Source: Vicinamibacterales bacterium (GTDB taxonomy: Bacteria > Acidobacteriota > Vicinamibacteria > Vicinamibacterales > CAVVIG01). From it: DNA of 24,000 nt. Below, in pieces: positions 4,753 to 24,000 of the stretch. How positions within the stretch are numbered: the first letter of the stretch is position 1; the number at the start of each line of letters is the position of its first letter. The translations under genes were made by a program, and so were the position numbers. Under the pieces are notes generated by a model. It was not told the DNA's origin, made no database searches, and saw only the letters and a program-made list of their open reading frames with translations. Location of the stretch: NCBI GenBank assembly GCA_035259385.1, contig DATFWL010000550.1:18787-42786 (forward strand). The letters run 5' to 3'.

Positions 4753-4861
4753 GCTTCCTCCTGATAGAAGTCCGCCGACTCTATCAAACCGTTGTATTGG
4801 ATTTCAGTTCGATTTACCAGCCGTTGTCGCGAGAGTCACTGCGTGTCCGGAAACTTGGATT

Positions 4862-4867
4862 TATACT
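4862..4867 (+). promoter_or_regulatory. Candidate -10 hexamer TATACT placed 7 nt upstream of the S9 peptidase ATG (possible leaderless transcript)
   Basis: The sequence reads cttggattTATACTgcccggtATG, with no purine-rich SD between the hexamer and the ATG. TTGGATTT occurs twice in the divergent intergenic region (4796-4803 and 4855-4862). Confidence 0.35.
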
Positions 4868-4874
4868 GCCCGGT

Positions 4875-8434: not shown

Positions 8435-9373
8435 ATGGCGACTGAGCGCTACCTGGAGGAGTGGCGGACCGCGGATCTCATCACCGCGGAGCAGCACGCG
8501 CTCCTCCTGACCATCGTCCGCAGGCAGCGCTTCGCGGTCTTTCTCGAGCTCAACGCGCTGCTCTATCTCGGCGTCGTCGCGATTGCGGGCGGCATTGGCT
8601 GGACGCTGCGCGAGCATTTCGCGACAGCCGGCGATGCCGTCGTCTTCGTCACGCTGGCCGCCATCTTCGCCGGCTGTCTCTGGTACTGCTTCACTCGCGC
8701 GCTGCCGTTCTCGCCCGAGCAGGTCGCGGCGCCAACCTTCTCTTTCGACTACATCCTGTATCTCGGATGCCTGGTGTTCGCCGCCGGAATCGCATACCTC
8801 GAGTACCGGTTTCGGCTGCTCGGCGTCGACTGGCACTATTACCTGCTCGGGTCGGCCGCGCTGTACGTCGCCCTCGCCTACCGCTTTGACAACCGCTTCG
8901 TCCTGTCACTCGGCCTGTCGACGTTGGGCGGGTGGTTCGGCGTCCGCTTCTCGGAATCGACGTTCTTCGGCGGCTCGATGCGCGAGATCGCTCTCGCCTA
9001 CGGTATCGCTGTCGCGGGAACTGGACTCGTATTCGATCGCCTCCGGATCAAACGGCACTTGCTCGAAGCCTACCTGCACATCGCGGTGAACGCAGTGCTG
9101 TTCGCCCTCGCCTCGGGAACCGTGGATCGGTCGCTGGTCGTCTGGCCGCTCGCGCTCGCCGTCGCGTGCGCGGTGGCTATCGAGCGAGGCATCCGCTTCA
9201 GGCGCTTTGCCTTCGTCGTCTACGGCGTGGTCTACGGGTATGTCGGCCTCAGCGCAGAAATCCTGCGCGGGATGCATCGCGACACGTCGATCCTCGGGTA
9301 CTTCGTGATCTCCGCGGCGGCGGTCGTCGTCGGCCTCGTCCTGCTGTCGCGCCGGTTCGGACGCGAGGAATGA
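8435..9373 (+). CDS. Multi-pass membrane protein (DUF2157-like N-terminal helix)
   Basis: 312 aa with about 8 hydrophobic segments. The N-terminal soluble segment LEEWRTADLITAEQHALLL resembles the DUF2157-type leader. The ATG lies 3 nt after the RidA-like stop codon. Confidence 0.7.
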   Translation: MATERYLEEWRTADLITAEQHALLLTIVRRQRFAVFLELNALLYLGVVAIAGGIGWTLREHFATAGDAVVFVTLAAIFAGCLWYCFTRALPFSPEQVAAPTFSFDYILYLGCLVFAAGIAYLEYRFRLLGVDWHYYLLGSAALYVALAYRFDNRFVLSLGLSTLGGWFGVRFSESTFFGGSMREIALAYGIAVAGTGLVFDRLRIKRHLLEAYLHIAVNAVLFALASGTVDRSLVVWPLALAVACAVAIERGIRFRRFAFVVYGVVYGYVGLSAEILRGMHRDTSILGYFVISAAAVVVGLVLLSRRFGREE

Positions 9374-10539
9374 GCTGCTACACGCGCGAGGATGAGGAGC
9401 GGATTCGGATGCAGGCGCACGTGCGTGCCTGGGGTCGCGCCGGCCTTCTCGACGCCGACCAGGTCAGCACGCTGGACACGCGCCTGCGGACGCCGTTGCG
9501 GCGAACGAATGTCTTCCTGCGGGCGGTGCTCGCGCTGTTCACGGCCCTGATCGTCGCGGCAGCGGTCGCTCTGGTCTTCGTGTCGTTCAACATCTCCGGC
9601 GATGTCGCGTCGACGATCACCCTCGTGATCGCTGCCGTCGCCTGCGGCGCGGTGGCCGAATATCTGATCGCATCCTTTCGCGTGTATCGCTACGGCGTCG
9701 AGGAGACGCTCGCGGTGGCGGCGGCGGTGCTGGTCGCGTTCGCCGTCGTTCGGTGGGCGGGCCCGATTGCGCTGCCGCATGACCGTGAGCTCGCGATGCT
9801 GGTTGGATCGGCCTGCGGGTTCGCGGTGTATCGGCGATTCGGGCTGGTCTATGCCGCGGTCGCGGCAACGATCTGCGCCGCAATCGTCCCGTTCGGGCTG
9901 GATGTCGGTGCGCCGGCGCAACGCATGATCGCGGCAGCGATCTTCAGCGCGATGCTCGTCTGGGCACGCCCGCTTCGACGTCGTCATGGCGATGATTTCC
10001 CGGGGGACGACTACGCGATCCTGCAGGCCGCGGCGTACGCCGGCGTCTATGTCTCGCTGAATCTCCACTTGTTCGATGACATCGGCGGAGCCTCACCCAC
10101 CACGGTCGCCGCATGGTTCTACTGGACCACCTACGTCGCCATCTGGCTCCTTCCAATCGCCGGACTGGCGGTCAGCATCCGCGACAGGGATCGGCCGCTG
10201 CTGACCGTCGCGCTCGCGTCGGCGCTGGCGACGCTCGCGACCAACAAACCGTATCTGGGCTGGGAGCGACAGACGTGGGATCCGATTCTGCTCGGTGTCC
10301 TGCTGATCGTCGTCGCGACCGTGGCGCGGCGCTGGCTGGCGAGCGGACCCGACGGCCAGCGCCGCGGCTTCACGGCGGCGCGGATTCTCGAGGGCGATCG
10401 CGACGCCTTGACCGCGATCGCGACCGCGTCCGCCGCGTGGCCGCGTGGGGCGCATCAGGCGGCGACGCCGGCCCAATCGTCGCCGTCGCCGTTTGAAGGC
10501 GGCCGATCCGGTGGCGGCGGCGGTGGCGCGGCCTACTGA
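9370..10539 (+). CDS. Multi-pass membrane protein, translationally coupled to the upstream gene
   Basis: Start moved to ATG 9370, which forms an ATGA overlap with the upstream stop at 9371-9373. About 10 hydrophobic segments. The N-terminal segment VRAWGRAGLLDADQVSTLDTRL echoes the neighbouring gene's N-terminus. The C-terminal tail is Gly-rich (GGRSGGGGGGAAY). Confidence 0.7.
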   Translation: MSCYTREDEERIRMQAHVRAWGRAGLLDADQVSTLDTRLRTPLRRTNVFLRAVLALFTALIVAAAVALVFVSFNISGDVASTITLVIAAVACGAVAEYLIASFRVYRYGVEETLAVAAAVLVAFAVVRWAGPIALPHDRELAMLVGSACGFAVYRRFGLVYAAVAATICAAIVPFGLDVGAPAQRMIAAAIFSAMLVWARPLRRRHGDDFPGDDYAILQAAAYAGVYVSLNLHLFDDIGGASPTTVAAWFYWTTYVAIWLLPIAGLAVSIRDRDRPLLTVALASALATLATNKPYLGWERQTWDPILLGVLLIVVATVARRWLASGPDGQRRGFTAARILEGDRDALTAIATASAAWPRGAHQAATPAQSSPSPFEGGRSGGGGGGAAY

Positions 10540-11487: not shown

Positions 11488-14109
11488 CTATTTCTCTGAC
11501 GTCGGCAGGCGTAAATCGTTCCGCACCGAATCGAGCTCCACCCAGTCGTGGATCTCCGCGGGCGTCAGGCCGTGGCTGATCGCCCGCGCGAGCCAGTCGA
11601 GGGCGGCGGCGCGATCTCCGACATCCATCCACACCACTGCGCCGAAGGCGAGCACGTGCGGATCGGCCACGTCCGGGGGCAACCGGTTCATCTCGTCACG
11701 CGCTTTCGCCTTTTCGCCGGTCTTCGCGTAGAACGCCGCGAGGCTGATCCGCGCCTCGATGTCGGCGGGATTGACCGAGAGATCCTGCGACGCCAGGGCG
11801 ATCGCCTGCGCGTACAGCGCGTTGGCCTGGTCACGCTTGCCGGCCAGGTAGGAAGCGCGCGCCATGCCGCCCACCACGATGTAGCCGTCGGGGCCGACGC
11901 GGCGGGCTGCCGCGAACTGCTCGATCGCCTCGTCGAAGCGGCGGAGCTTCGACAGCGTCGAGGCCCAGTTCGAGTAGGCAGCGACGCTGGGGGCGAGCGC
12001 GACCGATTTGCGACATGCGGCGATCGCCTCGTCGTAGCGGCCGATCGATCCGTAGAGGCCGCCGAGAGTGGCGTAGACGCGCGCGTTGTCTGGCGTCAGC
12101 GCGGCCGCGATCTCGTACTCGCGCACGGCGTCGGCATACCGTGCGTGTTCGCGGTAGAACGTGCCGAGCCAGACGTGCGTCGCCCAGTACTGCGGCCGCA
12201 GCGCGATCGCGCGGCGGTAGGTGGCTTCCGCCTCCGCGTTGGCGCCCTGGCGCGCCTGCGCGCGGGCCAGGCCGAGGGTTGCTTCGTCGCTGGTCGGCTC
12301 GCGGTCGACTGCCCGCTGGAACTCGCCGGCCGCGACGTCGTACGCGCCGGTGCCGAGCGCGATCGTACCAAGGCAGACGTGCGAGGCCGGCAGTTCGCCA
12401 TCGAGCGTTGCCGCCTGCGCGCACGAGGCGCGTGCGTCGTCGGCATGACGCGCCTGATGCGAGGCCTCGAACTTCTGCCACAGCGCCTGGCCGCGCGCGG
12501 CGTACGCTGCTGCGAACCGGGCGTCGAGCGCGATCGCGCGATCGAGCAGATCGATGGCGGCGTCGACGTTCTCCGGATGCTGGTACTCGAGCAGGCGACC
12601 GCGCGCCTCGAGGTAGAGGTCGAGCGCGCCAGGCGCTCGCGTGCCGCTCGCGCGCAGCGCCTCGCGCTCCGCCGGATCGAGCCGCAGCGCGAGCGCTGAT
12701 TCCGCCCAGGTCGCGACGCGATCCTGGAGGTCGAACGGATCGCCGGCAGCGGCGGTGGTCGAGAAGCCGTCGATCTGCCGCAGCGTGGCGGCGTCGACGA
12801 ACACGTAGTTGATCCGCAGCATGTCGCCGGCGCGGACGATCGAACCGTCGAGCACGATCGTCGCGCCCAGTTCGCGCCGCGCCTGCGCGGCATCGACGAC
12901 GTTGCGGCGGCGTGCTTCGAGCGTGGACGTGATCTGTATGCCGCGTCGGCTGGCGAGCGGCGTCATCTTCGCGCTCAGCGTGTCCGTGAGGCCGTTGCAG
13001 TAGGCCTCGGCCACGGCGTCGCCGCTGCCGCGGCAGGGGAGAATGACGAGGTTGCGAGGCTCGACGTGCGCCGCCGTGACACCGGACCGGCGAGCGGTGC
13101 CGTTGTCTGGCGCCTGCCTCCACAGCCACGCCGACGCGCCAACAGTCGCAAGAATGAGCGCCGCGGCGGCGGTGGCCAGCCTGCGTCGACCGGAGGGCGG
13201 CGGCGGGTCGACGGTGTGTGGACCGCCGGCTGCCCACTCGAGCTCGCGCGAAAGATCGGCGGCGTCCTGCCACCGCTTGTCCGGATCCTTGGCGAGCGCC
13301 GTGGCCACGATGCGCTCGACCGACGCCGGCGTGTCCGGCCGCAGCGCCGCGATCGGCGGCGGATCCTCGGTCATGATCGCCGCGATCAGGCTGGCCTGAC
13401 TCGCGTGCGTGAACGCGCGTCGGCCGGTGATCATCTCGTAGAGGATCAATCCGAGTGCGTAGATGTCGGTGCGCGCATCGACCGTCCGTCCCGCCAGTTG
13501 CTCGGGCGACATGTAGGCGATCGTGCCAATCAGCGTCCCTTCAGGGCTGAGGCCGTCGATCGTCGTCTCGTCGTTCGGCGGCGATTCCAGAAGAGTACGG
13601 TCGCGGAGCTTCGCGAGACCGAAATCGAGCAGCTTGACGCCCGATTCGGTCAGCATCACGTTGCTCGGCTTCAGGTCGCGGTGAATGATCCCTTCGCGGT
13701 GGGCGCGCGCCAGCGCCCCCGCCAGCGCGACGCCGTGCCGCAGCGACTCGCGAAGCGGCATCGGCTCTCGGGCGAGGCGCGTCGCCAGCGTTTCGCCCTC
13801 GAGATACTCCATGACCAGGAACTCGGTGCCGCCGTCCTCGCCGACGTCGTAGAGCGTGCAGATGTGCGGGTGGTTCAGGCGGGCGATCGCGCGCGCTTCG
13901 CGTTCGAAGCGCTGCCGGCGTCCCGGCCGTTCGGCGCCATCGGCGGCGAGGACCTTGATCGCGACCGTGCGGCCGACGCGGGTGTCGACGGCGCGGTAGA
14001 CCTCGCCCATCCCGCCCCGGCCGAGCAGGGCGATCACCTCGTACGGCCCCAGACGAGCGCCGTTTGGCAGAGCCACGGGGAAGCTCTGATTATGCGGCGT
14101 TGCCCACAC
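11488..14109 (-). CDS. Membrane-anchored Ser/Thr protein kinase with extracytoplasmic TPR repeat domain
   Basis: Hanks kinase motifs are present: GRGGMGEVY, AIKVL, HRDLKPSNVML, DFGLAK and SPEQ. A single TM segment follows (LATAAAALILATVGASAWLW), then a long C-terminal run of TPR-like repeats. The start is GTG 14109 with no clear SD, so it is approximate. Confidence 0.9.
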   Translation of the reverse strand: MWATPHNQSFPVALPNGARLGPYEVIALLGRGGMGEVYRAVDTRVGRTVAIKVLAADGAERPGRRQRFEREARAIARLNHPHICTLYDVGEDGGTEFLVMEYLEGETLATRLAREPMPLRESLRHGVALAGALARAHREGIIHRDLKPSNVMLTESGVKLLDFGLAKLRDRTLLESPPNDETTIDGLSPEGTLIGTIAYMSPEQLAGRTVDARTDIYALGLILYEMITGRRAFTHASQASLIAAIMTEDPPPIAALRPDTPASVERIVATALAKDPDKRWQDAADLSRELEWAAGGPHTVDPPPPSGRRRLATAAAALILATVGASAWLWRQAPDNGTARRSGVTAAHVEPRNLVILPCRGSGDAVAEAYCNGLTDTLSAKMTPLASRRGIQITSTLEARRRNVVDAAQARRELGATIVLDGSIVRAGDMLRINYVFVDAATLRQIDGFSTTAAAGDPFDLQDRVATWAESALALRLDPAEREALRASGTRAPGALDLYLEARGRLLEYQHPENVDAAIDLLDRAIALDARFAAAYAARGQALWQKFEASHQARHADDARASCAQAATLDGELPASHVCLGTIALGTGAYDVAAGEFQRAVDREPTSDEATLGLARAQARQGANAEAEATYRRAIALRPQYWATHVWLGTFYREHARYADAVREYEIAAALTPDNARVYATLGGLYGSIGRYDEAIAACRKSVALAPSVAAYSNWASTLSKLRRFDEAIEQFAAARRVGPDGYIVVGGMARASYLAGKRDQANALYAQAIALASQDLSVNPADIEARISLAAFYAKTGEKAKARDEMNRLPPDVADPHVLAFGAVVWMDVGDRAAALDWLARAISHGLTPAEIHDWVELDSVRNDLRLPTSEK

Positions 14110-14120
14110 AGCCGAGTGAA

Positions 14121-14157
14121 AAAGAAGAAGGGCGCGACCGCGTGAGCGATCGTGCCC
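14121..14157 (-). terminator. Intrinsic terminator for the radical-SAM gene (minus strand): imperfect GC hairpin followed by a T-rich tract
   Basis: The plus strand reads aaagaagaa-gggcgcgaccgcgtgagcgatcgtgccc. On the minus strand the hairpin is followed by ttcttcttt. A near-identical hairpin occurs at 17131-17161. Confidence 0.55.
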
Positions 14158-14163
14158 TCAGCT

Positions 14164-14190
14164 AGCCCCTAGCCCTAGCCCCTAGCCCCT
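14164..14190 (-). repeat. Four tandem heptamer or hexamer units (minus strand AGGGGCT / AGGGCT) starting 10 nt after the radical-SAM stop codon
   Basis: The plus strand reads agcccct agccct agcccct agcccct. This is the GGGGCTN family seen at 7128-7161. It is G-rich on the sense strand of the upstream gene. Confidence 0.85.
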
Positions 14191-14199
14191 ACGGTTCCT

Positions 14200-16314
14200 T
14201 TACACGACCGGCTTGTGCAGCACCGGCGCGGGCTCCTCGGTCTTCTTCTTCCCACCGAGCCCCTGAATCTGCAGCGTCGGCTGCTCCTTGAGCACGTGCT
14301 GCCGATAGAGCCTGGCCATCTCCTCGTTATAGGCCGCGTCCTTCGCCGTCTCCTCGGGCGTCTTGTGCTGGCGCGCCTTCAGCTTCTCCTCGCGCGCGTT
14401 CTTCGCGATGCCGCGGTCGTCGAGATCCGTCTGCGCGCCGGCGCGGACCGCCTCCTCGTTCAGCTTCAGCGAATGCGCGGTGGACGACAGCGGCACCGCC
14501 TTGCCGCCGGCGAAGATCTCGTGGCGGCCATGCTCCTCGTACCACCGGGTGAGCGTCGCCGTCATGTGCATCTTCTCGATGATGTTGCGCCAGCCGATTC
14601 CCGTGTTGTACGCGCAGAACGAAATCTCGCCCTGCTGGGTGGCGTACGGGATGATGCACATCTCGGTGCGGCGGAAGTCGTAGTTGAAGAGATCCTGGAA
14701 CCACATGCCGGCGATGAAGAGGAAGTTCCAGCGATCGGCGCGGCGCTTCTCGATGTCGGCGGACGTACGATCGCCCTCGACCTTGCCGTAACCGCCCGAC
14801 TGCGCCTTCTTCGTCGCGCCGAACGTCTTGTCGAACTTCTTCAGCAGGTCGCTGAGCTTGAAGTGTGTCGGCGACTGGAACGGATCGTAGTTGCGGACGA
14901 CCGCGAGGGCGAGCCCGAGGACCGACAGGAACTTGCCGCGCGCGGCGTCGTTGATCTGCGCGAGATCCTTGGCGAGCCGCTCGGCCTTCAAGAACGCCGT
15001 CACCGGGACCGCTTCCTTCGTCTCCTTGTCGATCATCAGGCCCATGCCGACGCCGCAGTTCGGGTGGCAGCCGCAGGTGAGCTGGCCCCACTGCGCGTCC
15101 GGTCCGTGGACGACGTCCGCCCAGTCGGTGAAGGTGCCCATGAACGAGATCGGGAACCAGTCGCGCGCCGGCTCGCCGAGTCCCGTCTGGTTCTTCACGT
15201 CGTGCGCCAGGTGCGACAGCGTGTAGCGCTGCGCCGCGCGCCGCTCGGGCGTCACCTCTTCGTCGCGCCCGGTGAAGCTCACCGGCTGGAACGACAGGAA
15301 GTTGATCTTCTTCGGGTTGTCGAGCGCGAACTCGATGATCCGCCCGACCTGCTCGTTGTTCACGCCGTTCACGATCGTGACGACCGGCACGATGTCCACG
15401 CCGGCCGAGTGCAGGTTCTCGATCGCGCGCAGCTTGACGTCGAACAGGTTGCCGACGCGGCGGTGCGAGTTCGCGGCGTTGCCGATGCCGTCGAACTGCA
15501 GGTACGCGTAGCGCAGGCCCGCCTCGGCCGCCGCCTTCGCGAACTCGGGGCTCTTGGCGAACTCGATGCCGTTGGTCGCCGCCTGCACCGAGTTGTAGCC
15601 GACCTTGCGCGAGTAGCGCACGGCGTCGAGGAACCACGGCGAGATCGTCGGCTCGCCGCCGGAGAACTGCACCGACATCTGCCGCTTCGGCTTGATGCTG
15701 ATCGCGTTGTCCAGCACCATCTTGATGTCGTCCCAGCCGAGCTCGTGGACGAATCCCACCTGGTTCGCGTCCATGAAGCACGGGTCGCACATCATGTTGC
15801 AGCGGTTGGTGAGATCGACGGTGAGCACCGAGCCGCGCCCGTGCTTGATCGTGCTCGAGCCGTGGTTGTGGAGCGTTTCGTCGTTGTGCGCGCGGATGTC
15901 ACGCCCGGGAAAGACATCCTCGAGATGTTTGAAGAACGCGGTGTCGATCGCCATCACGTCCTCGAAGTGGCCGTGGATGAGGCAGTCCTTCACCATCAGA
16001 ATCTTGCCGTCGCGTTCGAGAATCGTCGCCTTGATCTCGCCGACCTTTTCGTTGAGGAGGACGCTCACGTCCTTCTTGCCGTCGAGAATCGCCTGACGCG
16101 CCTCGCGCACGCAGATCGGACACAGCGAGTCGGTCTCGCGCGGCCATCCGAGCGGGGGCTTCGTCTTCTCGTACGATTTCAGCAGCGGCTTGTCGGACCA
16201 GGCGGGTGTGAAGGACGGATTTTGTTTGATCTTGTTCAAACCGTTGAAGAGCGTCCATGCGCCGTTGGCCGCGATCGACAGGCCCTTCTCGACGTACTTG
16301 ATTGGCTTGTGCAT
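14200..16314 (-). CDS. Large radical-SAM enzyme resembling archaeal tetraether lipid synthase (Tes / GDGT-MAS, COG1964-type), copy 1
   Basis: 704 aa. N-terminal Cys pair SLCPIC...KDCLIHGHF. Radical-SAM CX3CX2C in VDLTNRCNMMCDPCFMDAN. Further blocks are VQFSGGEPT, QAATNG, YLQFDGIG, LSFQPVSFTGRDE, TCGCHPNCGVG (auxiliary-cluster-like) and the C-terminal block GMWFQDLFNYDFRRTEMCIIPYATQQGEISFCAYNTG. The order of these blocks matches my recollection of MJ0619-type proteins. CDS and radical-SAM calls are high confidence; the specific function is not. Confidence 0.88.
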   Translation of the reverse strand: MHKPIKYVEKGLSIAANGAWTLFNGLNKIKQNPSFTPAWSDKPLLKSYEKTKPPLGWPRETDSLCPICVREARQAILDGKKDVSVLLNEKVGEIKATILERDGKILMVKDCLIHGHFEDVMAIDTAFFKHLEDVFPGRDIRAHNDETLHNHGSSTIKHGRGSVLTVDLTNRCNMMCDPCFMDANQVGFVHELGWDDIKMVLDNAISIKPKRQMSVQFSGGEPTISPWFLDAVRYSRKVGYNSVQAATNGIEFAKSPEFAKAAAEAGLRYAYLQFDGIGNAANSHRRVGNLFDVKLRAIENLHSAGVDIVPVVTIVNGVNNEQVGRIIEFALDNPKKINFLSFQPVSFTGRDEEVTPERRAAQRYTLSHLAHDVKNQTGLGEPARDWFPISFMGTFTDWADVVHGPDAQWGQLTCGCHPNCGVGMGLMIDKETKEAVPVTAFLKAERLAKDLAQINDAARGKFLSVLGLALAVVRNYDPFQSPTHFKLSDLLKKFDKTFGATKKAQSGGYGKVEGDRTSADIEKRRADRWNFLFIAGMWFQDLFNYDFRRTEMCIIPYATQQGEISFCAYNTGIGWRNIIEKMHMTATLTRWYEEHGRHEIFAGGKAVPLSSTAHSLKLNEEAVRAGAQTDLDDRGIAKNAREEKLKARQHKTPEETAKDAAYNEEMARLYRQHVLKEQPTLQIQGLGGKKKTEEPAPVLHKPVV

Positions 16315-16525: not shown

Positions 16526-17059
16526 ATGAACAGAGCGATGCGGATCTCGGTTGCGGTCGGGCTGGCGGCCGCCCTCACAGGAGTGGCGGCCACGCTGACA
16601 GCCGAGCAGAGCGCGCAAGTCGTTCAGGTTCGCGATGACTGCGATCCGGCCACGTTTAATGCCGATCCGCCCGTTGGGCCAGGCCTTGGCCCGATCTGCG
16701 AGGGCAACGGCGACACGACGTTCGGCGAATTCATCGCGGAACTGCGGGCGACGAAGGTGGCGGAGGAGTGGCGGTTCAATCCCGATCGGATGAGCGAGCC
16801 GCGGCCCATCGTCGCGCACAACCGCGGCGGCGAGACACACTCGTTCACCAGGGTCGCCAAGTTTGGCGGCGGCCAAGTCCCCGTCCTGAACACGCTGTCG
16901 GGGAACGACAAATTCCTCGCGCCGGAGTGCTTCGACAAGAAGGTCGGTGGAACCTTCATCGGACCCGGCCACGATTTGAACGTCGATAGCGTGCAGGGCG
17001 GGGACCAGTTCCAATGCTGTATCCACCCCTGGATGCGGACGACGGTCAGAAATCGGTAG
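16526..17059 (+). CDS. Exported cupredoxin-like (putative type-1 blue copper) protein
   Basis: 177 aa. Signal peptide MNRAMRISVAVGLAAALTGVAATLTA. The C-terminal ligand loop QCCIHPWM has the C-x2-H-x2-M spacing of amicyanin (CTPHPFM). An upstream AHN / ETHSF His could supply the fourth ligand. Confidence 0.65.
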   Translation: MNRAMRISVAVGLAAALTGVAATLTAEQSAQVVQVRDDCDPATFNADPPVGPGLGPICEGNGDTTFGEFIAELRATKVAEEWRFNPDRMSEPRPIVAHNRGGETHSFTRVAKFGGGQVPVLNTLSGNDKFLAPECFDKKVGGTFIGPGHDLNVDSVQGGDQFQCCIHPWMRTTVRNR

Positions 17060-17119
17060 GTCCAGGTAGCGTGGAAGTCAGGAACGTCGGGTAAGTCGGG
17101 AAATCGAATATGTCGGACA
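17057..17119 (+). repeat. Degenerate tandem 9-nt repeat (about 7 units, consensus near AAGTCGGGN) starting at the cupredoxin stop codon
   Basis: Read directly: taggtccag gtagcgtgg aagtcagga acgtcgggt aagtcggga aatcgaata tgtcggaca. It resembles the minus-strand consensus GTRGGTCRG of the 1758-1811 array. It is G-rich on the sense strand. Confidence 0.55.
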
Positions 17120-17126
17120 GAAATGC

Positions 17127-17165
17127 AAAAGGGCGCGACCGCGTGAGCGGCGATCGCGCCCTTTT
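17127..17165. terminator. Bidirectional intrinsic terminator between convergent cupredoxin and TonB-receptor genes
   Basis: The sequence reads aaaa-gggcgcgaccgc-gtga-gcggcgatcgcgccc-tttt. The outer 8-bp GC stem, inner 4-bp stem and GTGA tetraloop are flanked by A4 and T4, so a U-tract follows the hairpin on either strand. Confidence 0.7.
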
Positions 17166-17170
17166 CAGCT

Positions 17171-17198
17171 AGCCCCGAGCCCCCGGCCCCGAGCCCCT
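17171..17198 (-). repeat. G-rich GGGGCTN-family repeat (minus strand) starting 3 nt after the TonB-receptor stop codon
   Basis: The plus strand reads agccccg agcccccgg ccccg agcccct. The minus strand reads aggggctc ggggccgggggctc ggggct. It is followed, in the minus direction, by CTAGCTG and the 17131-17161 hairpin, the same arrangement as at 14121-14192. Confidence 0.75.
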
Positions 17199-17200
17199 CT

Positions 17201-20119
17201 TCAGAAGTTCATCTGCACGCCGAACCGGATGTAACGGCCGTCGACAATCTGCGTTGGCGTCATCCACAGGTTCGTGCCCGCGTTCGCATACGTCTCGTTG
17301 ACGCGGACCACGGTCCCGGCGTTGAACAGGTTGAAGACGTCCATGAACCCCTGCATCTTCAGCCGATCGACCCTGAACGTCTTGCCCAGTCGCATATCCA
17401 GCCGGTTCTGATAGTCGAGGAACATCGTGCTCGGCTGGACCAGGTTGATGATGCTCGACGCGGCGCCGGTGGTCGAACCGATGATCGGCCGTCCCGCGAC
17501 GACCGACGTCACCGTGTAGTTCGCACTGACGTTTGGCCCGGGAATCGACGCAAACGTCCCGCTCAGCTGGATATCGTACGGGAAGGAATACGCCGCGGAT
17601 GCCTTGAACGATGTGCGGAACAGGCCGGCAAGTCCTACACCGGCGGCAGGCAGCGTTGAATCGCAGAACCGGACCCGGTTCGGGTTGTCGCGCGCGCTGC
17701 CTACCGGGTCGCCATTGGTGACGTTGTCGCCGTCGCACGTCGTCGAGACGCGCCGGTCGGTGGTGACACCGCCGAACACGAGATACTTCGCGCCGCGCGC
17801 GTTCACCGTGAATTCCACGCCGTCGTAATTGGTCTTGTTCTGGGTCGAGTAGGTGATCAGGTTGTCGGTCGCGATGCCCACCTTGCCGGGGTTCAACGTG
17901 TACATCGTGATCGGCTGTCCCGACAGCGCCAGCCGCGTGTCGGTCGGCGTGTTGATGGTGTACGTCGTCCAGTCGCCCGCAGTCAGATTCTGATTGTCGG
18001 TGGCCTGAATGTTGTAGTACTCGCGGTGATAGTAGCCGGCGGTCGCCGACAGCCGCGGCCGGAGCTCGCGCTGCAGCACGGCGCTGTATTCCCAGTTGTA
18101 GCCGCGCGGCAGATTGGGATCCGGTCGCGACGTGATCTGACCGAAGTTCGACGTGCCGCCGATCACCTCGTTCACCTGAATCGAGCCGTCCGGGTTCAGG
18201 ATCGTGTTGTCACGGTTCGCGTCGTTCCAGGTGCGCATCTGCGTCGCGCCGTTCATGCCGTTGAACGTCTGCGCGAAGCCGGCCGCCTGCGACGCGACGT
18301 ACTTGCCGACGTTCCCCTTCACGGCGGTTTTGCCGTCGCCGGTCAGATCGAACGACGCCGCAAAGCGGACCGCCCAGTCGTTCCAGTTCGGCACGTTGGG
18401 AATCTCGGGGAAGTTTCGCGGGCCGATCCAGGTCGACGCGGCCGACGACTCCGCCGGGATCGACGCGTTGAAGTGCTCGAAGCGCGCGCCGTAGTTGAGC
18501 GTCAGCCGGTTCATCGTCCAGGCGTCCTGCGCGTAGGCGCCCAAGTCGCTGTTGACGTTCTGGATGCCCGTCGTCGGCGTGTTGTAGACGACGGCCTGGA
18601 ACGGGAAGTCGGTGAGCGGAATATTCGTGCCGGGAACGACGGTGTTCACCGTGATGAGGGTGTTGATGTCGGCCTTTTCGATGAAGGTTCGCGAATTCTG
18701 TCCCCAGAGGTCCGTCATCCCGACCTTGATCGCGTGCGAGCCGGTCACGTAGCTCGCCGACGCGAGGATGTTGTAGTCCTTGGTCGTGCTCGAATACTCC
18801 GGGATGAGGTAGCCGCAGCGGCCGCTCAACAGGCCAGTGGATCCGTTGAGGTGCGCCAGCGTCGTCCCGCCGGGGGCCGTCCGCGAGCAGTCCTGCTCGT
18901 AGGGCTGGTCGTAGTAGGCCAGGCCAGCTTCGAACAGCAGCTTGTTCGAATGCGCGCGCGTCCATCGCACCTGCGGGATCCAGCCGACGCCGAAGGCGTC
19001 GGTCGACGCCTCCGGCGTCGTCGTCGCGAGGGTGTTGAAGCCGTTGAAGAACTCCCCGTTGTACTGCTTTTCGATGTAGGCGCGAATCTTGTCCTTGCTC
19101 GTCGCCGCCCACGTCACGCGCCCCACCGCACTGTAATTGCCCATGAGGTTGCGGTAGGCCTGGCTGCCGTCGGGGAATTTCGCGCTCGGGACGTAGACCT
19201 TCGTGTCCTGATACTTGTACGTGAAGTAGAACCACACCTTGTCCTGCATCAACGGTCCGCCGAACGACGGGTTGATCTGCCAGTCGTAGGCGGTGCCGGC
19301 GATCAGGACGCCTGCTGCCTTCACGGCGTCCGAGCGGTTGTCGGCCTGGAGGCCACTCCCCTGGTACTGCGCGAACAGTGATCCGGAAAACTTGTTGCCG
19401 CCGTCTTTCGGGACCTGGTTGACGCGGATGCCGCTGCTCTGGATTTCGGCCGACTGCGATCCCGTCGTGTAGCTCAGCTCCTGCACGGCCGCATCGTTCA
19501 TGTAGAAGCCGCTGAACTGGCCGCTGCCGCACAGGTTGTTCACCCGCAGACCGTCGATCGCCATCGTGAAGTCGGTCGTCGAGGATCCGTGCACGGTGAG
19601 GTTGTATTGCCCCAGGACGAACGGCGTCACCGTGGTACCGGGAATCAGCAGCGCGCGCGCCGGCGTATTGCGGATCGGCGTCGGAATCGCGTCGAGCACG
19701 TCGCGGTTCGCGACGATCGTCGACTGGTTGTTGATCACGTCGACCGCCGGCGTCTCGCCGGTGACGGTCAGCGTTTCTTCCACCGCGCCGACCGACAGTT
19801 CCGCGGTCACCTGCGCGGTGAAGGTGCCTTCGAGGACGATGTCGGCTCGCTTGACGGTCTTGAAGCCGGCGAGCGTGAACGACACCTGATATGTCCCCGG
19901 AACGAGGTCGACGATCTTGTACTGACCGGCCGCGTCGGTGATCACGGAGCGCGACTTTTCAATCAGTGCGGGGCTCGAGGCTTCGACGGTCACTCCGGGC
20001 AGGACAGCGCCAGTGCCGTCCCTGACGACGCCCGCGATCGCCGCTTGCGCATGGCTGGTTGCGGGCAACAGCAGCACGGCAGCCGAAAGCATGGCCGCAC
20101 AAAGCAGGACTCGACGCAT
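17201..20119 (-). CDS. TonB-dependent outer-membrane receptor with CarboxypepD_reg N-terminal domain (second copy in window)
   Basis: Start moved to ATG 20119 (MRRVLLCAAMLSAAVLLLPATSHAQA), with a GGAGGGAG SD 6 nt upstream. The N-terminal block AGVVRDGTGAVLPGVTVEASS...AGQYKIVDLVPGTYQV is CarboxypepD_reg-like. The barrel ends in a terminal Phe (GVQMNF). Confidence 0.9.
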   Translation of the reverse strand: MRRVLLCAAMLSAAVLLLPATSHAQAAIAGVVRDGTGAVLPGVTVEASSPALIEKSRSVITDAAGQYKIVDLVPGTYQVSFTLAGFKTVKRADIVLEGTFTAQVTAELSVGAVEETLTVTGETPAVDVINNQSTIVANRDVLDAIPTPIRNTPARALLIPGTTVTPFVLGQYNLTVHGSSTTDFTMAIDGLRVNNLCGSGQFSGFYMNDAAVQELSYTTGSQSAEIQSSGIRVNQVPKDGGNKFSGSLFAQYQGSGLQADNRSDAVKAAGVLIAGTAYDWQINPSFGGPLMQDKVWFYFTYKYQDTKVYVPSAKFPDGSQAYRNLMGNYSAVGRVTWAATSKDKIRAYIEKQYNGEFFNGFNTLATTTPEASTDAFGVGWIPQVRWTRAHSNKLLFEAGLAYYDQPYEQDCSRTAPGGTTLAHLNGSTGLLSGRCGYLIPEYSSTTKDYNILASASYVTGSHAIKVGMTDLWGQNSRTFIEKADINTLITVNTVVPGTNIPLTDFPFQAVVYNTPTTGIQNVNSDLGAYAQDAWTMNRLTLNYGARFEHFNASIPAESSAASTWIGPRNFPEIPNVPNWNDWAVRFAASFDLTGDGKTAVKGNVGKYVASQAAGFAQTFNGMNGATQMRTWNDANRDNTILNPDGSIQVNEVIGGTSNFGQITSRPDPNLPRGYNWEYSAVLQRELRPRLSATAGYYHREYYNIQATDNQNLTAGDWTTYTINTPTDTRLALSGQPITMYTLNPGKVGIATDNLITYSTQNKTNYDGVEFTVNARGAKYLVFGGVTTDRRVSTTCDGDNVTNGDPVGSARDNPNRVRFCDSTLPAAGVGLAGLFRTSFKASAAYSFPYDIQLSGTFASIPGPNVSANYTVTSVVAGRPIIGSTTGAASSIINLVQPSTMFLDYQNRLDMRLGKTFRVDRLKMQGFMDVFNLFNAGTVVRVNETYANAGTNLWMTPTQIVDGRYIRFGVQMNF

Positions 20120-20344
20120 GACGGTCTCCCTCCGAGGTTGTAAGTGAATGTAGACCGGCACGGTACGGTGCGGCTGGTTGCGTGTCAAGGCGAAACTGAG
20201 ACCGAAACGAATAGTTTCTGGCGGAGATCCGGCCCGCCGGACCGGATGTCTGCCGGGGCGGCGCACGCCGAGCCACGCACGTGAGCGGTGGAGTGGATCG
20301 CGACGCTGCGCGCGTAGGGACGGCGTCGAGCGTCAGGTCCGACG

Positions 20345-21094
20345 CTAAATCCCGAGCCGATCCTTCAGCGCGCGCACGCGATCCCGCGAGACACTCAGCT
20401 CGGTCTTGGCTTCATCCTTGAGCCGGACCAGCACGCCGCCGTCGACGGCCGGGAAGAGCTCCTGCACGAACGGGATGTTGACGATCGTCGCCCGGTGGAT
20501 GCGCGCGAAGCGCCGCGGGTCGAGCCGTTCCTCGAGCTCGGTCAGCGTGAAGTCGATCACGTGCTCGCGGCCGCTGGCGCAGGCGAAGGTGAGCTTGTCC
20601 TTCGAAAAGAAGTGGCTCACGCGCGCGACGTCGAGGATTGTCGTGCGTTCTCCGACCCGCGATGCGATCCGCTCGAGTCTGCGGGCCGGCGACAGCGCCG
20701 CGGCCAGCTCGCGCGCGAGCGCCCGGACGTCGTGCGGCGGGTGCGGCGCCAGCCGCTCGGCCTTGTCGAGCGCGCGCGCCAGCCGCTCGGGATCGATCGG
20801 CTTGAGCAGGTAGTCGATGGAGTTCACCGCGAACGCGTCGATGGCGTAGCGGTCGTACGCGGTCGTGAATATGACGGTGACGTCGCGGTCGAGCCGTTCG
20901 AGCAGCTGAAATCCGGTGAGCCCCGGCATCTGGATGTCGAGGAACAGGATGTCGACGTCGTGGGCTTGCAGGAACGCGAGCGCGATCTCGGGGTCCGTTG
21001 ACGATCCGACGATCGTCACGCGCCCGTTCGCGTCGAGCAGCCGCTGCAGTCGCTGCACCGCCAGCTTTTCGTCGTCGAGAATGTAGACGCGCAT
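20345..21094 (-). CDS. Two-component response regulator, LytR/AlgR (LytTR DNA-binding) family
   Basis: The receiver domain reads MRVYILDDE...DILFLDIQMPGLTGFQLLERL. The C-terminal LytTR-like domain includes FFSKDKLTFACASGREHVIDFTLTELEERLDPRRFARIHRATIVN. The start lies 3 nt after the kinase stop codon. Confidence 0.9.
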   Translation of the reverse strand: MRVYILDDEKLAVQRLQRLLDANGRVTIVGSSTDPEIALAFLQAHDVDILFLDIQMPGLTGFQLLERLDRDVTVIFTTAYDRYAIDAFAVNSIDYLLKPIDPERLARALDKAERLAPHPPHDVRALARELAAALSPARRLERIASRVGERTTILDVARVSHFFSKDKLTFACASGREHVIDFTLTELEERLDPRRFARIHRATIVNIPFVQELFPAVDGGVLVRLKDEAKTELSVSRDRVRALKDRLGI

Positions 21095-21097
21095 CGA

Positions 21098-22201
21098 TCA
21101 GGGGTTCGTGGCCGCTCCCGCCGGCACCTCGATCGCGACCGACGTCCTGCCAGCGCGGCTCTCGACCGCGAGTGACGCTCGATCGCCGAACAACATCTGC
21201 AGACGCCGGTCGAGCAGATCCAACCCGTGGCCGGGCGGCCGCGCCGACGCCTCGAACCCGGGTCCGTCGTCCTCGACGGTGATCCGGAGCCGGCGTTCTC
21301 CAGCCGCCGCGCGCACATGGATCGACGCTCCGTCGCGGCGCGGCGAGACCGCGTACTTGACGCTGTTCTCCACCAGCGTCTGCAGCGCCATGCGCGGCAC
21401 CGGCAGCCGCCCCGCGCCGTCGACCACCTCCAGCGAGTAGCGCAGCCGATCGCCGAAGCGCACCCGCTCGATATCGAGATAGGCACGGACGATTTTCAGT
21501 TCTTCTTCGAGCGGGACGATCGGTGTCGCCGTGCTGTCGAGCGCCGATCGCAGTAGCGACGCCAGCTGCCCGATCATCTTCTCGGCGCCGGCCGGGTCGT
21601 CGTGCACGAGCGCCGCGATCGCGTTCAGCGTGTTGAACAGGAAATGCGGCTGCACCCGCGACTCGATCGACGCGAGCTGCGCTTCGGCGGCGAGGCGCCG
21701 CGCCTCGGCCTCGTCGCGCTCCTTGGTCCGCAGCGCGACAGTCGCCTCATCCAGGCGCCGCCGCATGGTCTCGACGACGGTGACGAAGATTCCGAAGATC
21801 AGCGTGATGACGATCGACGCTTTCAGCGAGCCGGCCATCCAGGTGGCGACGATGCCACCGCCGTGCAGATAGCCGACCGCGGCAAGGATCAGGATCGTCA
21901 CGAAGCTGCCGGCCAGCGCGATGCCGACCATCGTCGCGATCAGCACGATCCAGTCGAGCGGGAACCGGTAGCGGCACGACACCGCGCGGGCGACGCGCGG
22001 CATGACGACGCCGAGCATGGGGCCGATGACGAACGAGAAGAGCAGCGAGACGGCGAAGGCCTCGACGAGCCGCCGCGGCGGCGTGCGCAGGCTGACGCCG
22101 CCATAGAAGACCGTCACGACGATCGAGGCGGCGATGCTGGCGCCGGTCACGCGCGCCCAGTACACGCGCGAGAGGCGCCGCGGCCGCTCGGACTTGCCCA
22201 T
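21098..22201 (-). CDS. Membrane sensor histidine kinase, LytS/YehU type (His_kinase PF06580-like plus HATPase_c)
   Basis: About 4-5 N-terminal TM segments and a coiled linker. The family-diagnostic phospho-acceptor block is RVQPHFLFNTLNAIAALV. ATPase motifs follow (LVENSVKYA, DDGPGF, GHGL). Confidence 0.88.
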   Translation of the reverse strand: MGKSERPRRLSRVYWARVTGASIAASIVVTVFYGGVSLRTPPRRLVEAFAVSLLFSFVIGPMLGVVMPRVARAVSCRYRFPLDWIVLIATMVGIALAGSFVTILILAAVGYLHGGGIVATWMAGSLKASIVITLIFGIFVTVVETMRRRLDEATVALRTKERDEAEARRLAAEAQLASIESRVQPHFLFNTLNAIAALVHDDPAGAEKMIGQLASLLRSALDSTATPIVPLEEELKIVRAYLDIERVRFGDRLRYSLEVVDGAGRLPVPRMALQTLVENSVKYAVSPRRDGASIHVRAAAGERRLRITVEDDGPGFEASARPPGHGLDLLDRRLQMLFGDRASLAVESRAGRTSVAIEVPAGAATNP

Positions 22202-22284: not shown

Positions 22285-24000
22285 TCACCCGATGGTCACC
22301 GGCTCGACCGCGGCCGCCGCCGCCACCGACGCCGGGCCGGGGACCGCCTTCGGCGTCCACTGAACGAGCCGACCGTCTCTCGGAATGTGCAGCGCAACCG
22401 GCCGCGCGTATGCGGGCATCGGCACGATCTTCCTGAGGTTGGCGTAGACCGGATGCCTGCCGTGCTCCCTGTACCAGTCCGCGACCTTGGCGCTCTGATA
22501 CATGTTCTCGACGATCTGCCGCCAGCCGACGCCGGTGTTGTAGGCGCAGAACGAGATCTCGCCCATCTGCGTCGCGTAGGGAATGATACACATCTCGGTG
22601 CGGCGGAAGTCGTAGGTCCAGAGATCCTGGAACCACATGCCGGCGACGAACATCAGCAGCCACTCGTCGCCCTTGCGATTGTCGTTGTCGCGCGCCCCGA
22701 GCCGGCCGCCCAGCTGTCCGCCGCTCTGCTTGTCGAACTTGTGCAGGAGATCAATCAGGCGGAAGCCGGCCGGCGCCTTCAGCGGGTGGTAGTTGCGGAG
22801 CAGGCTCAGCGCGCTCTGCACGATCGTGAGCGCGCGCCCGCGGGCGGCATCGGCAATCGCGGTCGCGTCGCTGAGCACCTGCTCGACGTTCAGGAACTCG
22901 GAGAGCGGCGCCCACTCCTTCGTCTTCTTGCTGACCATGAAGCCCATGCCGACGCCGCAGTCGGGGTGACAGCCGCAGCTGAGCGATCCCCACTGGGCGC
23001 CCGGGCCTCTCATCAGGTCGGTGACCTGCGACATCGTGCTCGCCGCGGACAGCGGAAACCAGTCGCGCAGCGGATCGGTGACGCCGGTCTGGCGCTTCAT
23101 GTCCTCGGCGAGGTGCGACAGCGTGTAGCGCTTGCGGTGGCGCTCGTCGTCGCCGATCGCCTCGTCGCGGCCGGTGAACGACACCGGCTGGAACGACACG
23201 AAGCTCACCTTGTCGCAGTTCTGCAGCGCGAACTTGACGATCGGTCCCACCTGATGATCGTTGACGGTGTTGACGATCGTCACGACGAGGCAGATGTCGA
23301 TGCCGGCGGCGTGGAGGTTCTCGATCGCCCGCAACTTGACGTCGAACAGGTTGCCGACCTTGCGGTGGGCGTTGGCGTCCTCGCCGATGCCGTCGAACTG
23401 CAGGTAGGCGATGCGCATCCCGGCGTCGTGCGCCTGCCGCGCGAACTCCGGATCCTGCGCGAAGCGGATGCCGTTGGTCGCCGCCTGGACGCTGAAGTAG
23501 CCGATCGCGCGCGCGTAGCGGACCGCCTCGAGGAAGATCGGCGAGATGGTCGGCTCGCCGCCCGAGAACTGCACGGTCATCTGCCGCCGCGGCTTGATGC
23601 TGATCGCGTCGTCGAGCAGCTTGCGGACGTCGTCGAAGGTCAGCTCGTGGACGTAGCCGACCTGGTTGGCGTCCATGAAGCACGGATCGCACATCATGTT
23701 GCAGCGGTTGGTCAGGTCGATCGTCAGCACCGCGCCGCGCCCGTACCTGATCGACGACGTGCCGTGGTTGTGCAGCGTGTCGGTGATCGCGGGAAAGTCG
23801 CGGCCGGGAAAGAGCGATTCGAGACGGCGGAGAAATGCGGGATTCACCGCGAGCGTGTCGACGAAGGTGCCGTGGCGCGGGCACGTCTTCTCGACGATCA
23901 CTTTGCCGTCGCGCTCGAGGATCTGCGCCTTGATCTCGCCGACGTGATCGTCGACGAGCGACTCGATCGCCTGCTCGCCGGCGAGAATGCGCGCGCGCGC
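22285..24000 (-). CDS. Large radical-SAM enzyme, Tes / GDGT-MAS-like, copy 2 (5-prime end lies beyond the window)
   Basis: The frame stays open and homologous to copy 1 up to the window edge: ARARILAGEQAIESLVDDHVGEIKAQILERDGKVIVEKTCPRHGTF aligns with REARQAILDGKKDVSVLLNEKVGEIKATILERDGKILMVKDCLIHGHF. The GTG at 23901 in the ORF track is therefore internal. All copy-1 blocks are present: TNRCNMMCDPCFMDAN, VQFSGGEPT, YLQFDGIG, SFQPVSFTGRDE, SCGCHPDCGVG and GMWFQDLWTYDFRRTEMCIIPYATQMGEISFCAYNTG. Confidence 0.88.
   Translation of the reverse strand, partial: ARARILAGEQAIESLVDDHVGEIKAQILERDGKVIVEKTCPRHGTFVDTLAVNPAFLRRLESLFPGRDFPAITDTLHNHGTSSIRYGRGAVLTIDLTNRCNMMCDPCFMDANQVGYVHELTFDDVRKLLDDAISIKPRRQMTVQFSGGEPTISPIFLEAVRYARAIGYFSVQAATNGIRFAQDPEFARQAHDAGMRIAYLQFDGIGEDANAHRKVGNLFDVKLRAIENLHAAGIDICLVVTIVNTVNDHQVGPIVKFALQNCDKVSFVSFQPVSFTGRDEAIGDDERHRKRYTLSHLAEDMKRQTGVTDPLRDWFPLSAASTMSQVTDLMRGPGAQWGSLSCGCHPDCGVGMGFMVSKKTKEWAPLSEFLNVEQVLSDATAIADAARGRALTIVQSALSLLRNYHPLKAPAGFRLIDLLHKFDKQSGGQLGGRLGARDNDNRKGDEWLLMFVAGMWFQDLWTYDFRRTEMCIIPYATQMGEISFCAYNTGVGWRQIVENMYQSAKVADWYREHGRHPVYANLRKIVPMPAYARPVALHIPRDGRLVQWTPKAVPGPASVAAAAAVEPVTIG

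Follow-up and report, generated by a model that had tools for sequence, protein, structure and literature searches.

Branched glycerol dialkyl glycerol tetraethers, or brGDGTs, serve widely as proxies of past temperature and pH. The acidobacterial enzymes that produce them are unproven, and the bacterial homologues of Tes, the archaeal tetraether synthase (also named GDGT-MAS), are the leading candidates. We have analysed a stretch of 24,000 nucleotides (nt) from a Vicinamibacterales bacterium (assembly GCA_035259385.1, contig DATFWL010000550.1, positions 18,787 to 42,786 of the forward strand), hereafter the window, which contains two Tes-like radical S-adenosylmethionine (SAM) genes. Copy 2, at the right-hand end of the window, is the gene in question, and copy 1 is its complete homologue on the same strand.

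Bacterial Tes homologues are already known, as is the presence of two copies in one acidobacterium. Zeng et al. (2022) reported 456 bacterial Tes homologues and 22 methanogen genomes with two copies; MA_1114, the second Tes of Methanosarcina acetivorans, yielded traces of macrocyclic archaeol and no GDGT (PMC8941075). Concerning the Acidobacteria, Halamka et al. (2022) suggested that brGDGTs are synthesised by "one or both" of the Tes homologues present in Candidatus Solibacter usitatus (PMC10087280). A preliminary description of the window has to be amended in this respect, two Tes homologues of one acidobacterium, and two copies of different activities in 22 methanogen genomes, having been published before (PMC10087280, PMC8941075). 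Sahonero-Canavesi et al. detected Tes homologues in 3 of 14 acidobacteria producing iso-diabolic acid, no mss homologues in the acidobacterial genomes screened and no Tes homologues in the Mss-bearing genomes (PMC13159169). In papers of 2025-2026 the bacterial Tes homologues are still unconfirmed (PMC11868695, PMC13459092, PMC13274423), and no paper assaying one of them was found in the literature searched.

What appears to be new is a separate, cluster-linked subfamily represented by copy 2 and the loss of one iron-sulfur (Fe-S) cluster in every bacterial sequence examined. We consider it somewhat more probable than its opposite that copy 2 is an intact, maintained Tes-family enzyme recruited to a specialised lipid pathway and that copy 1 is a stand-alone gene, candidate for the coupling of membrane-spanning lipids.

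The two copies and their cofactor motifs

The two genes and the motifs of copy 2 are located as follows.

22285..24000, minus strand: copy 2, partial coding sequence (residues 71-641 and the stop codon) of a Tes/GDGT-MAS-family radical SAM protein of 641 amino acids (aa); open frame, identical full-length protein P0001, Pfam/NCBIfam matches, predicted fold.
14200..16314, minus strand: copy 1, complete Tes-like radical SAM protein of 704 aa belonging to the pan-acidobacterial clade; complete open reading frame (ORF), BLASTP, NCBIfam, tree.
23872..23883, minus strand: CPRH, second half (CxxH) of the rubredoxin-like iron motif, equivalent to C33/H36 of GDGT-MAS; alignment, PMC9433317.
23680..23703, minus strand: CNMMCDPC, the radical SAM motif CxxxCxxC, binding the SAM-cleaving [4Fe-4S] cluster; alignment.
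22954..22977, minus strand: CGCHPDCG block; alignment.
22546..22641, minus strand: C-terminal auxiliary-cluster block GMWFQD...MCIIPYAT...SFC, with the equivalents of Met439, Cys455, Tyr459 and Cys470; alignment, PMC9433317.

The frame of copy 2 is open over 571 codons, from position 24000 down to the TGA at 22285-22287 on the minus strand, with no stop and no frameshift. The database protein P0001, encoded on a contig of 85,262 bp, represents the full product of 641 aa; it includes the helix of the N-terminus and CPTC, a half of the rubredoxin-like motif, both located outside the window. Copy 2 is not truncated, because P0001 holds the complete product and the 70 N-terminal residues lie beyond the window edge, with a start codon about 210 nt past the window end. 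The gene itself is therefore intact and is cut by the window edge alone; the upstream truncation or frameshift envisaged in the preliminary description was not found.

Both copies contain the Pfam domains Zn_ribbon_HMPTM and Radical_SAM, and the best NCBIfam model for both is the tetraether lipid synthase Tes (NF045702), with 308.3 bits for the visible part of copy 2 and 303.1 bits for copy 1. The best match in the PDB, obtained with copy 1 as query, is 7TOL (GDGT-MAS of M. jannaschii, E = 1.6e-60). An AlphaFold model of copy 2, of moderate quality (mean pLDDT 67.5, pTM 0.76), was aligned by Foldseek with 7TOM/7TOL over 558 columns (E = 1.4e-25, TM 0.75 normalised on the target), and its remaining fold matches, of which the next is MoaA, are restricted to the radical SAM core. 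Pfam, NCBIfam, PDB and fold matches thus agree with the assignment of both copies to the Tes family made in the preliminary description. The label "Tes-like" used there stands for the family and has to be restricted for the enzyme type, the ligands of the N-terminal cluster being missing and both scores lying under the equivalog cut-off of 450 bits.

The cofactor ligands reported for GDGT-MAS (PMC9433317) were mapped onto an alignment of 85 bacterial sequences. The rubredoxin-like motif Cx2C...Cx2H is complete in copy 2, consisting of CPTC (P0001 residues 64-67, outside the window) and CPRH, and its spacer counts 42 residues against 20 in GDGT-MAS. The motif CNMMCDPC aligns with C98/C102/C105 of GDGT-MAS and is invariant in 85 of the 85 bacterial relatives. 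The last cysteine of CGCHPDCG (C418 of P0001) aligns with C338 of GDGT-MAS, and the first two (C412 and C414) are conserved in bacteria and additional relative to the archaeal enzyme. Likewise, C541, C555 and M525 of P0001 align with C455, C470 and M439; the equivalents of C338/C455/C470 are, from their conservation, the probable ligands of the C-terminal cluster, of which Met439 is named as the labile ligand in the GDGT-MAS report (PMC9433317). Tyr459, a strictly conserved active-site residue of GDGT-MAS, corresponds to Y545 in P0001 and to Y557 in copy 1. Both copies and all 85 bacterial relatives possess the motif CxxC...CxxH, the radical SAM triad and the equivalents of C338/C455/C470, Met439 and Tyr459, with the exception of the relative L008, which appears frameshifted and is devoid of the C-terminal ligand set.

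The N-terminal auxiliary [4Fe-4S] triad C73/C77/C80 is absent from both copies and from 85 of the 85 bacterial sequences, as a result of a deletion of 10 residues. The histidine aligned with H83, taken as the conserved His ligand, is retained in the bacterial sequences, and the archaeal-type representatives retain CCCH at this cluster. Because the N-terminal triad is lost, two cysteines are gained and the ligands are otherwise kept, the two copies constitute a bacterial variant of the Tes family and are not equivalogs of the archaeal synthase.

Copy 1 and copy 2 are separated by 5,970 bp, in agreement with the 6 kb first estimated. BLASTP aligns them with 331/549 identities (60%), 77% positives and 12 gap positions (E = 0). 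Copy 2 keeps 11 of the 11 cysteines of copy 1, so that the conservation of every cysteine motif, noticed in the preliminary description, is borne out. The identity reaches 76% in the radical SAM core and 8/9 residues in the CGCHPxCG block, decreases to 45% between residues 421 and 515 of the full protein (after CGCHPxCG), rises to 71% in the C-terminal cluster block GMWFQD...HGRH and falls to 29% in the tail. The profile of about three quarters in the core and far less after CGCHPxCG was hence correctly seen beforehand, and the renewed rise in the C-terminal cluster block had been overlooked. Copy 2 lacks two features of copy 1, namely an insert of 9 aa and, at the C-terminus, a charged tail of about 85 residues. 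Two additional cysteines of copy 2, C307 and C332 in P0001 (window positions about 23290-23292 and 23215-23217), are localized in the radical SAM barrel; they are present in all sequences of the copy 2 clade and in no other clade, and copy 1 has Val and Pro at these positions. They could form a metal or redox site specific to this clade.

Compared as DNA, the two genes match at 70-79% in a constant register, in blocks of 85-300 nt. A recent gene conversion between them was considered and rejected, because identity peaks at 79% and no near-identical stretch occurs.

Phylogeny and the putative lipid cluster linked to copy-2-type genes

Neighbour-joining trees were built with simple distances; they comprised 80 species-representative loci and additional contigs, together with 25 distant representatives of full length and 7TOL. 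The species-representative scan returned these 80 loci out of at least 597 relatives, no genome being represented twice. The matches in the representative library were mostly fragments, and the 25 full-length ones served as outgroups and for the survey of ligands. Clade I, which includes copy 1, gathers sequences of Terriglobia, Bryobacterales, Blastocatellia and Vicinamibacteria, with 73-91% identity to copy 1, among them the sequence L059 of a "Ca. Solibacter usitatus" metagenome-assembled genome (MAG), with 78% identity. Clade II (Acidiferrales, Cybelea and others) is the sister of clade I, and copy 2 falls in a deep clade of its own; each of the three is supported by a bootstrap value of 100. 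The grouping of clades I and II to the exclusion of copy 2 also reaches 100, and copy 1 with copy 2 was recovered in 0 of 100 replicates. Concerning the sister group of the copy 2 clade, neither the association with L020/L035 nor that with Polyangia was recovered (0/100 replicates each). The split between the copies predates the spread of the copy 1 clade across Acidobacteriota, because copy 2 lies outside clades I+II. Judging by this tree, the copies are not a recent pair formed within the lineage and would derive from an ancient duplication or an old horizontal acquisition.

The copy-1 type is spread across the phylum in the 80 loci returned, of which only four carry the copy-2 type, all in Acidobacteriota/Vicinamibacterales MAGs. 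Among the best 120 database clusters listed for each copy, identity does not fall below 79% for copy 2 or below 85% for copy 1; JGI and ENA metagenomes account for most of them, and the source names of the close relatives of copy 1 are Vicinamibacterales or Acidobacteriota. Against orthologues, the Nei-Gojobori dN/dS ratio of copy 2 is 0.146-0.204 and that of copy 1 is 0.102-0.184, which indicates purifying selection on both. The dS value between the copies is uninformative, as synonymous sites are compressed at a GC3 of 93%, and no age was estimated from it. The GC3 of copy 2 (0.934) equals that of copy 1 (0.935), for which reason copy 2 is considered compositionally native and not recently acquired. 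The phylogeny proposed in the preliminary description, with both copies, the archaeal 7TOL and bacterial homologues, resolves three clades at bootstrap 100, and GC3 argues against the recent horizontal acquisition considered there. Its "old duplication with both copies under selection" is retained as to the age and the maintenance of both genes (dN/dS 0.10-0.20) and abandoned as to a duplication within the lineage, copy 2 standing outside I+II with a bootstrap of 100.

Two further features concern other loci. In L050 (10001-12853, a Blastocatellia MAG), the Tes-like match spans 2,853 nt against the usual 1,830 or so, which suggests an insertion or an intein, as in the intein-containing Tes model NF045703. 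In clade II, an upstream ORF of about 625 aa devoid of Pfam match is conserved in 11 of 19 loci (L066 7662-9536 and 10 others).

The flanks of the copy-2-type genes are conserved upstream and vary among loci downstream. Upstream DNA is visible in 18 loci, of which 17 have an acyl-AMP/CoA ligase gene directly upstream of the copy-2-type gene, at a distance of 24-63 nt or overlapping, and this pairing holds down to about 70% protein identity. Further upstream are found genes for an ApeI/ApeP-like dehydratase, a DUF2062 methyltransferase, YdjM, an LpxL-like acyltransferase, a family 2 glycosyltransferase (GT2) and an MMPL/HpnN-like exporter, with an FkbO/Hyg5 chorismatase in part of the clusters. 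This ligase-side block is bounded by a divergent gene for an HpnR-like B12 radical SAM protein, a candidate lipid C-methylase, beyond which come LolA (LolA2_flexi-like), a ketosynthase (KS), a ketoreductase (KR; FlxB-like, 215 bits), an acyl carrier protein (ACP), a deacetylase and a protein of 970 aa, then a PHP-family protein, a second KS and a halogenase-like flavoprotein. These aryl-polyene-type parts were found across L003, L004, L085, L089-L091, L095 and L096 and represent a composite of several contigs; the scores of the family-specific NCBIfam models (FlxB, LolA2_flexi) are below their cut-offs. From the gene content, the cluster beside copy-2-type genes would correspond to an aryl-polyene/flexirubin/xanthomonadin-type parts list with two added genes, one Tes-like and one of the B12 radical SAM type.

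The HpnR-like gene was located in L004 (357-1787, minus strand), L089 (10001-11479) and L090 (2429-3901); it scores 211 bits for a cut-off of 650 bits and is labelled "hopanoid C-3 methylase" by some sources. On the 553-kb contig L089, an IS110-family transposase gene and a reverse-transcriptase gene (1-821 and 8452-9681) interrupt or flank the cluster, which is split there, the remainder of the block no longer coming after the MMPL and GT2 genes.

With copy 2, acidobacterial Tes homologues comprise at least three well-separated subfamilies, namely a phylum-wide stand-alone one, the sister Acidiferrales/Cybelea clade and a restricted one tied to the polyene-like cluster.

Genes between and around the copies

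On the minus strand copy 2 is followed, after a spacer of 83 nt, by a LytS-type kinase gene, a LytTR regulator gene, a TonB-dependent receptor gene and a terminator-like hairpin. Beyond the hairpin come a divergent plus-strand ORF of 177 aa, copy 1 and a Ser/Thr kinase gene with TPR repeats.

21098..22201, minus strand: membrane histidine kinase of the LytS/YehU type, 83 nt downstream of copy 2; Pfam His_kinase and HATPase_c.
20345..21094, minus strand: LytTR-family response regulator, partner of the kinase; Pfam Response_reg and LytTR.
17201..20266, minus strand: TonB-dependent receptor with a carboxypeptidase-regulatory-like N-terminal domain, between the copies; Pfam, position conserved in L084 and L086-L088.
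17127..17165, minus strand: intrinsic-terminator-like hairpin of 16 pairs followed by a T-rich tail, just after the receptor gene; terminator scan.
16526..17059, plus strand: conserved ORF of 177 aa, divergent from copy 1, with a signal-peptide-like N-terminus and a C-terminal CCIHPWM; no Pfam/NCBIfam match.
14100..14199, minus strand: repeat of the terminator-like element, right after the stop codon of copy 1; homology to the element after the receptor gene.
11488-14109, minus strand: fusion of a Ser/Thr kinase with TPR repeats, just downstream of copy 1; position conserved in L086-L088.
4698-7112, plus strand: prolyl-oligopeptidase-family S9 peptidase with PD40 repeats.
1819-4752, minus strand: second CarboxypepD_reg/TonB-dependent receptor.

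The terminator scan detected no terminator-like site between copy 2 and the LytS-type kinase gene, and the hairpin at 17127-17165 is the likely end of the transcription unit that includes copy 2. The two copies are therefore assigned to separate transcription units. The promoter scan of the window gave nothing above chance expectation. The stop codon of copy 1 and that of the receptor gene are each followed by a homologous element of about 80 nt (14100-14199 and 17100-17200, minus strand). In this element, which resembles a repeated terminator module, a series of GGGGCTNG-like units precedes a GC-rich hairpin, GGGCGCGAT...GCGGTCGCGCCC, and the tail is rich in T.

The order copy 2, receptor, ORF of 176 aa and copy 1 is repeated in L084, L086, L087 and L088, where this ORF is 75-77% identical to the 177-aa ORF of the window at the matching position. 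The LytS/LytTR pair is variable among these four loci, being present in some and missing in others, and the LytS-type kinase occupies the matching position in L084, L085 and L092. No copy 1 was detected in the visible DNA surrounding the copy-2-type genes of L003-L006, L091 and L094-L097, nor any copy 2 within 10 kb of the copy-1 orthologues of L001 and L002. Outside the subgroup formed by the window, L084 and L086-L088, the two types are separated by over 10 kb or belong to different contigs. The adjacency at 6 kb is thus a local trait of one subgroup, as the distant loci of either type show no partner nearby.

One two-component system recurs beside either Tes-like gene: the LytS/LytTR pair is associated with copy 2 in the window (20345-22201), and in L002 (8062-9876) the orthologous pair, whose members are 61% and 74% identical to those of L085, is located directly upstream of the copy-1 orthologue. 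Genes for FolE (GTP cyclohydrolase I) and for a TPR/RMD1-3-like protein are found 1-12 kb from copy-1 orthologues (window 429-1746, L001 12925-14314, L002 21033-22118), which is probably plain synteny. No neighbour is conserved over the clade I genes, the best candidate being present in 14 of 50 loci, and the recurrent neighbours are generic (ABC transporter, TonB-dependent receptor, QueG-TPR).

Proposed functions, alternatives and known systems

In the mechanism that we propose, the [4Fe-4S] cluster held by CxxxCxxC would cleave SAM to a 5'-deoxyadenosyl radical, which would take a hydrogen atom from the end of a lipid tail lodged in a hydrophobic pocket. The substrate radical would be retained by a sulfur of the C-terminal auxiliary cluster, which has a Met ligand, and a second SAM-derived radical on another tail would attack it to form a Csp3-Csp3 bond; each of these steps follows the chemistry given for GDGT-MAS (PMC9433317). 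Copy 1, phylum-wide and stand-alone, would be the natural candidate for the coupling leading to iso-diabolic acid or brGDGTs. Copy 2 would be, as in relatives, the last gene of an aryl-polyene/flexirubin-like type II polyketide synthase/fatty acid synthase lipid cluster, and we infer from these relatives that the polyene-like cluster is located upstream of copy 2 in this genome also. Since copy-2-type genes are terminal in that cluster, copy 2 most likely couples or cross-links the tails of its lipid product. Copy 2 appears to be co-transcribed with the LytS/LytTR pair and the TonB-dependent receptor, copy 1 forming a separate unit. A functional divergence of the copies is plausible, and their contrasting genomic contexts argue for it. 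The context speaks for distinct lipid pathways more than for distinct steps within a single brGDGT pathway: the division proposed in the preliminary description (ester versus ether, first versus second C-C bond) finds no support, copy 2 being set in the context of a separate lipid pathway.

Several points weigh against the recruitment of copy 2 to such a pathway. The cluster lies beyond position 24000 and is deduced from contigs whose copy 2 is 88-92% identical, and a gene order conserved within one order can be due to common ancestry and not to function. The products of aryl-polyene pathways terminate in an aromatic ring and offer no obvious terminal-methyl substrate for coupling. Relatives of the copy 2 clade in Polyangia and in other MAGs, including L020, are not in polyene-like clusters, and the association is for this reason clade-specific. 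The tree was obtained by neighbour joining on simple distances, with no supported placement of the copy 2 clade relative to Polyangia and the other groups, and the structural model of copy 2 has poor confidence around the cluster-binding loops. Because the [4Fe-4S]N triad is missing and two extra cysteines are conserved, the cofactors may not be the same as in GDGT-MAS, and the chemistry might differ as well. Lastly, no bacterial homologue has a proven activity in the Csp3-Csp3 tail coupling of Tes/GDGT-MAS (PMC11868695, PMC13459092).

The two copies could also do the same work under different control, both coupling iso-branched acyl or alkyl tails (iso-diabolic acid, brGDGT), with copy 2 expressed under other conditions, for instance through LytS/LytTR, and its position beside the lipid cluster being incidental or due to a shared regulation of membrane remodelling. 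The identity of all catalytic and ligand residues, the 76% identity of the cores, the separate transcription units and the occurrence of the LytS/LytTR pair beside copy 2 here and beside the copy-1 orthologue in L002 are in line with this explanation. We nevertheless judge it unlikely, as the clades stay apart at about 60% identity while each is 75-90% conserved internally, and as the regions between the cluster-binding blocks, which in GDGT-MAS form amphipathic helices lining the second lipid pocket (PMC9433317), are just 45-49% identical. Moreover, copy 2 has its clade-specific cysteines and lacks the 9-aa insert and the C-terminal tail, and its pairing with the AMP-ligase survives a deep divergence, whereas the kinase-regulator pair is confined to a subgroup. 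A different question is that of origin. Copy 2 might be a xenologue, transferred long ago into an ancestor of Vicinamibacterales, possibly with the polyene-like cluster or from a Myxococcota-like donor; the two copies would then never have been a single gene in this lineage. Such an origin would be compatible with the function favoured here. Its position outside the acidobacterial clades I+II (bootstrap 100), its restriction to 4 of the 80 loci returned when the copy-1 type is phylum-wide, and a first tree in which it was close to Polyangia and unclassified MAG sequences speak for a transfer. This origin is possible but doubtful, since no sister group is supported (0/100 for L020/L035 and for Polyangia), the Polyangia relatives are without the cluster context, and GC and GC3 are indistinguishable from those of copy 1 and its neighbours, so that any transfer would be ancient.

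The two other readings are far less probable. The description of both copies as pterin C-methyltransferases instead of lipid enzymes, as MJ0619 was first annotated, is suggested by source names ("7,8-dihydro-6-hydroxymethylpterin dimethyltransferase"), by the Pfam name Zn_ribbon_HMPTM and by the GTP cyclohydrolase I gene 1-12 kb from the copy-1 orthologues of the window, L001 and L002. It is very unlikely, given that this FolE neighbourhood is limited to close Vicinamibacterales relatives and not conserved across clade I, and that Lloyd et al. could not corroborate a pterin activity and showed for MJ0619 the binding of lipid and the synthesis of GDGT and macrocyclic archaeol (PMC9433317). As to a decaying or non-functional duplicate, which the 5' end cut by the window and the apparent frameshift of the relative L008 might have suggested, it is hardly credible: the pseudogene reading was rejected on the 571 codons without stop, the full-length P0001, a dN/dS of 0.15-0.20 and the retention of all ligand residues, and the best 120 database clusters listed are all at least 79% identical to copy 2.

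The recruitment of copy 2 to a specialised lipid pathway can be given a bolder form, which is speculative and, as a whole, improbable. Copy 2 would be the final tailoring enzyme of a polyene-like cluster with a B12 radical SAM methylase and would join two cluster-made tails by a C-C bond into a new class of dimeric, macrocyclic or membrane-spanning envelope lipids of soil Vicinamibacterales, copy 1 being the true acidobacterial synthase of iso-diabolic acid and brGDGTs. If copy 2 does act on the cluster product, radical tail-to-tail coupling would extend to a new family of bacterial envelope lipids. The division into subfamilies shows experimenters which gene to test for the synthesis of brGDGTs and iso-diabolic acid, and implies that counting "Tes hits" in metagenomes mixes enzymes with probably different substrates. 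The absence of one of the three archaeal Fe-S clusters from the bacterial sequences examined provides a concrete point for mechanistic work.

The aryl polyene, flexirubin and xanthomonadin clusters (ApeA-R type) are reportedly treated by Cimermancic et al. (2014) and in later work. They would share with the composite cluster of the relatives a pair of KS, a KR (FlxB-like), an ACP, an ApeI/ApeP-like dehydratase, an AMP-ligase and a methyltransferase, together with an LpxL-like acyltransferase, a GT2, a LolA (LolA2_flexi-like), an MMPL protein, a FkbO-type chorismatase (in some loci) and a halogenase-like flavoprotein. To our knowledge, Tes-family radical SAM genes and HpnR-like genes of the B12 radical SAM type are both absent from the known clusters of aryl-polyene type. 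The literature searched yielded no paper linking aryl polyenes with a tetraether synthase, and no link between S. usitatus or other bacterial Tes homologues and a polyene-like cluster.

The archaeal Tes/GDGT-MAS enzymes (MJ0619, PDB 7TOL/7TOM; MA_1486; Maeo_0574) display the same order of domains as the two copies, with a zinc ribbon, a radical SAM core and a C-terminal auxiliary-cluster domain; they share the radical SAM triad, C338/C455/C470, Met439 and Tyr459, and provide the best PDB match in sequence and in fold. The identity between them and the copies is nevertheless about 27-35%. Contrary to the archaeal enzymes, the copies have C73/C77/C80 deleted, a rubredoxin-like spacer of 42 residues instead of 20, two extra cysteines in CGCHPxCG, an added N-terminal helix and added C-terminal tails, and score below the equivalog cut-off. 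Their substrate cannot be isoprenoid diethers of the archaeol type, which this bacterium is not known to make. MA_1114 resembles copy 2 as the second Tes paralogue of a genome and is a precedent for a different activity, but it is archaeal, has an isoprenoid substrate and is not cluster-linked. S. usitatus is, like the source of the window, an acidobacterium with two Tes-family genes, the class of the source being Vicinamibacteria (subdivision 6). Finally, by its description, the radical SAM protein Mss of Thermotoga maritima and Thermoanaerobacter ethanolicus, which is active under anaerobic conditions only, joins two fatty-acyl tails tail-to-tail, and this is the type of reaction proposed here (PMC13159169).

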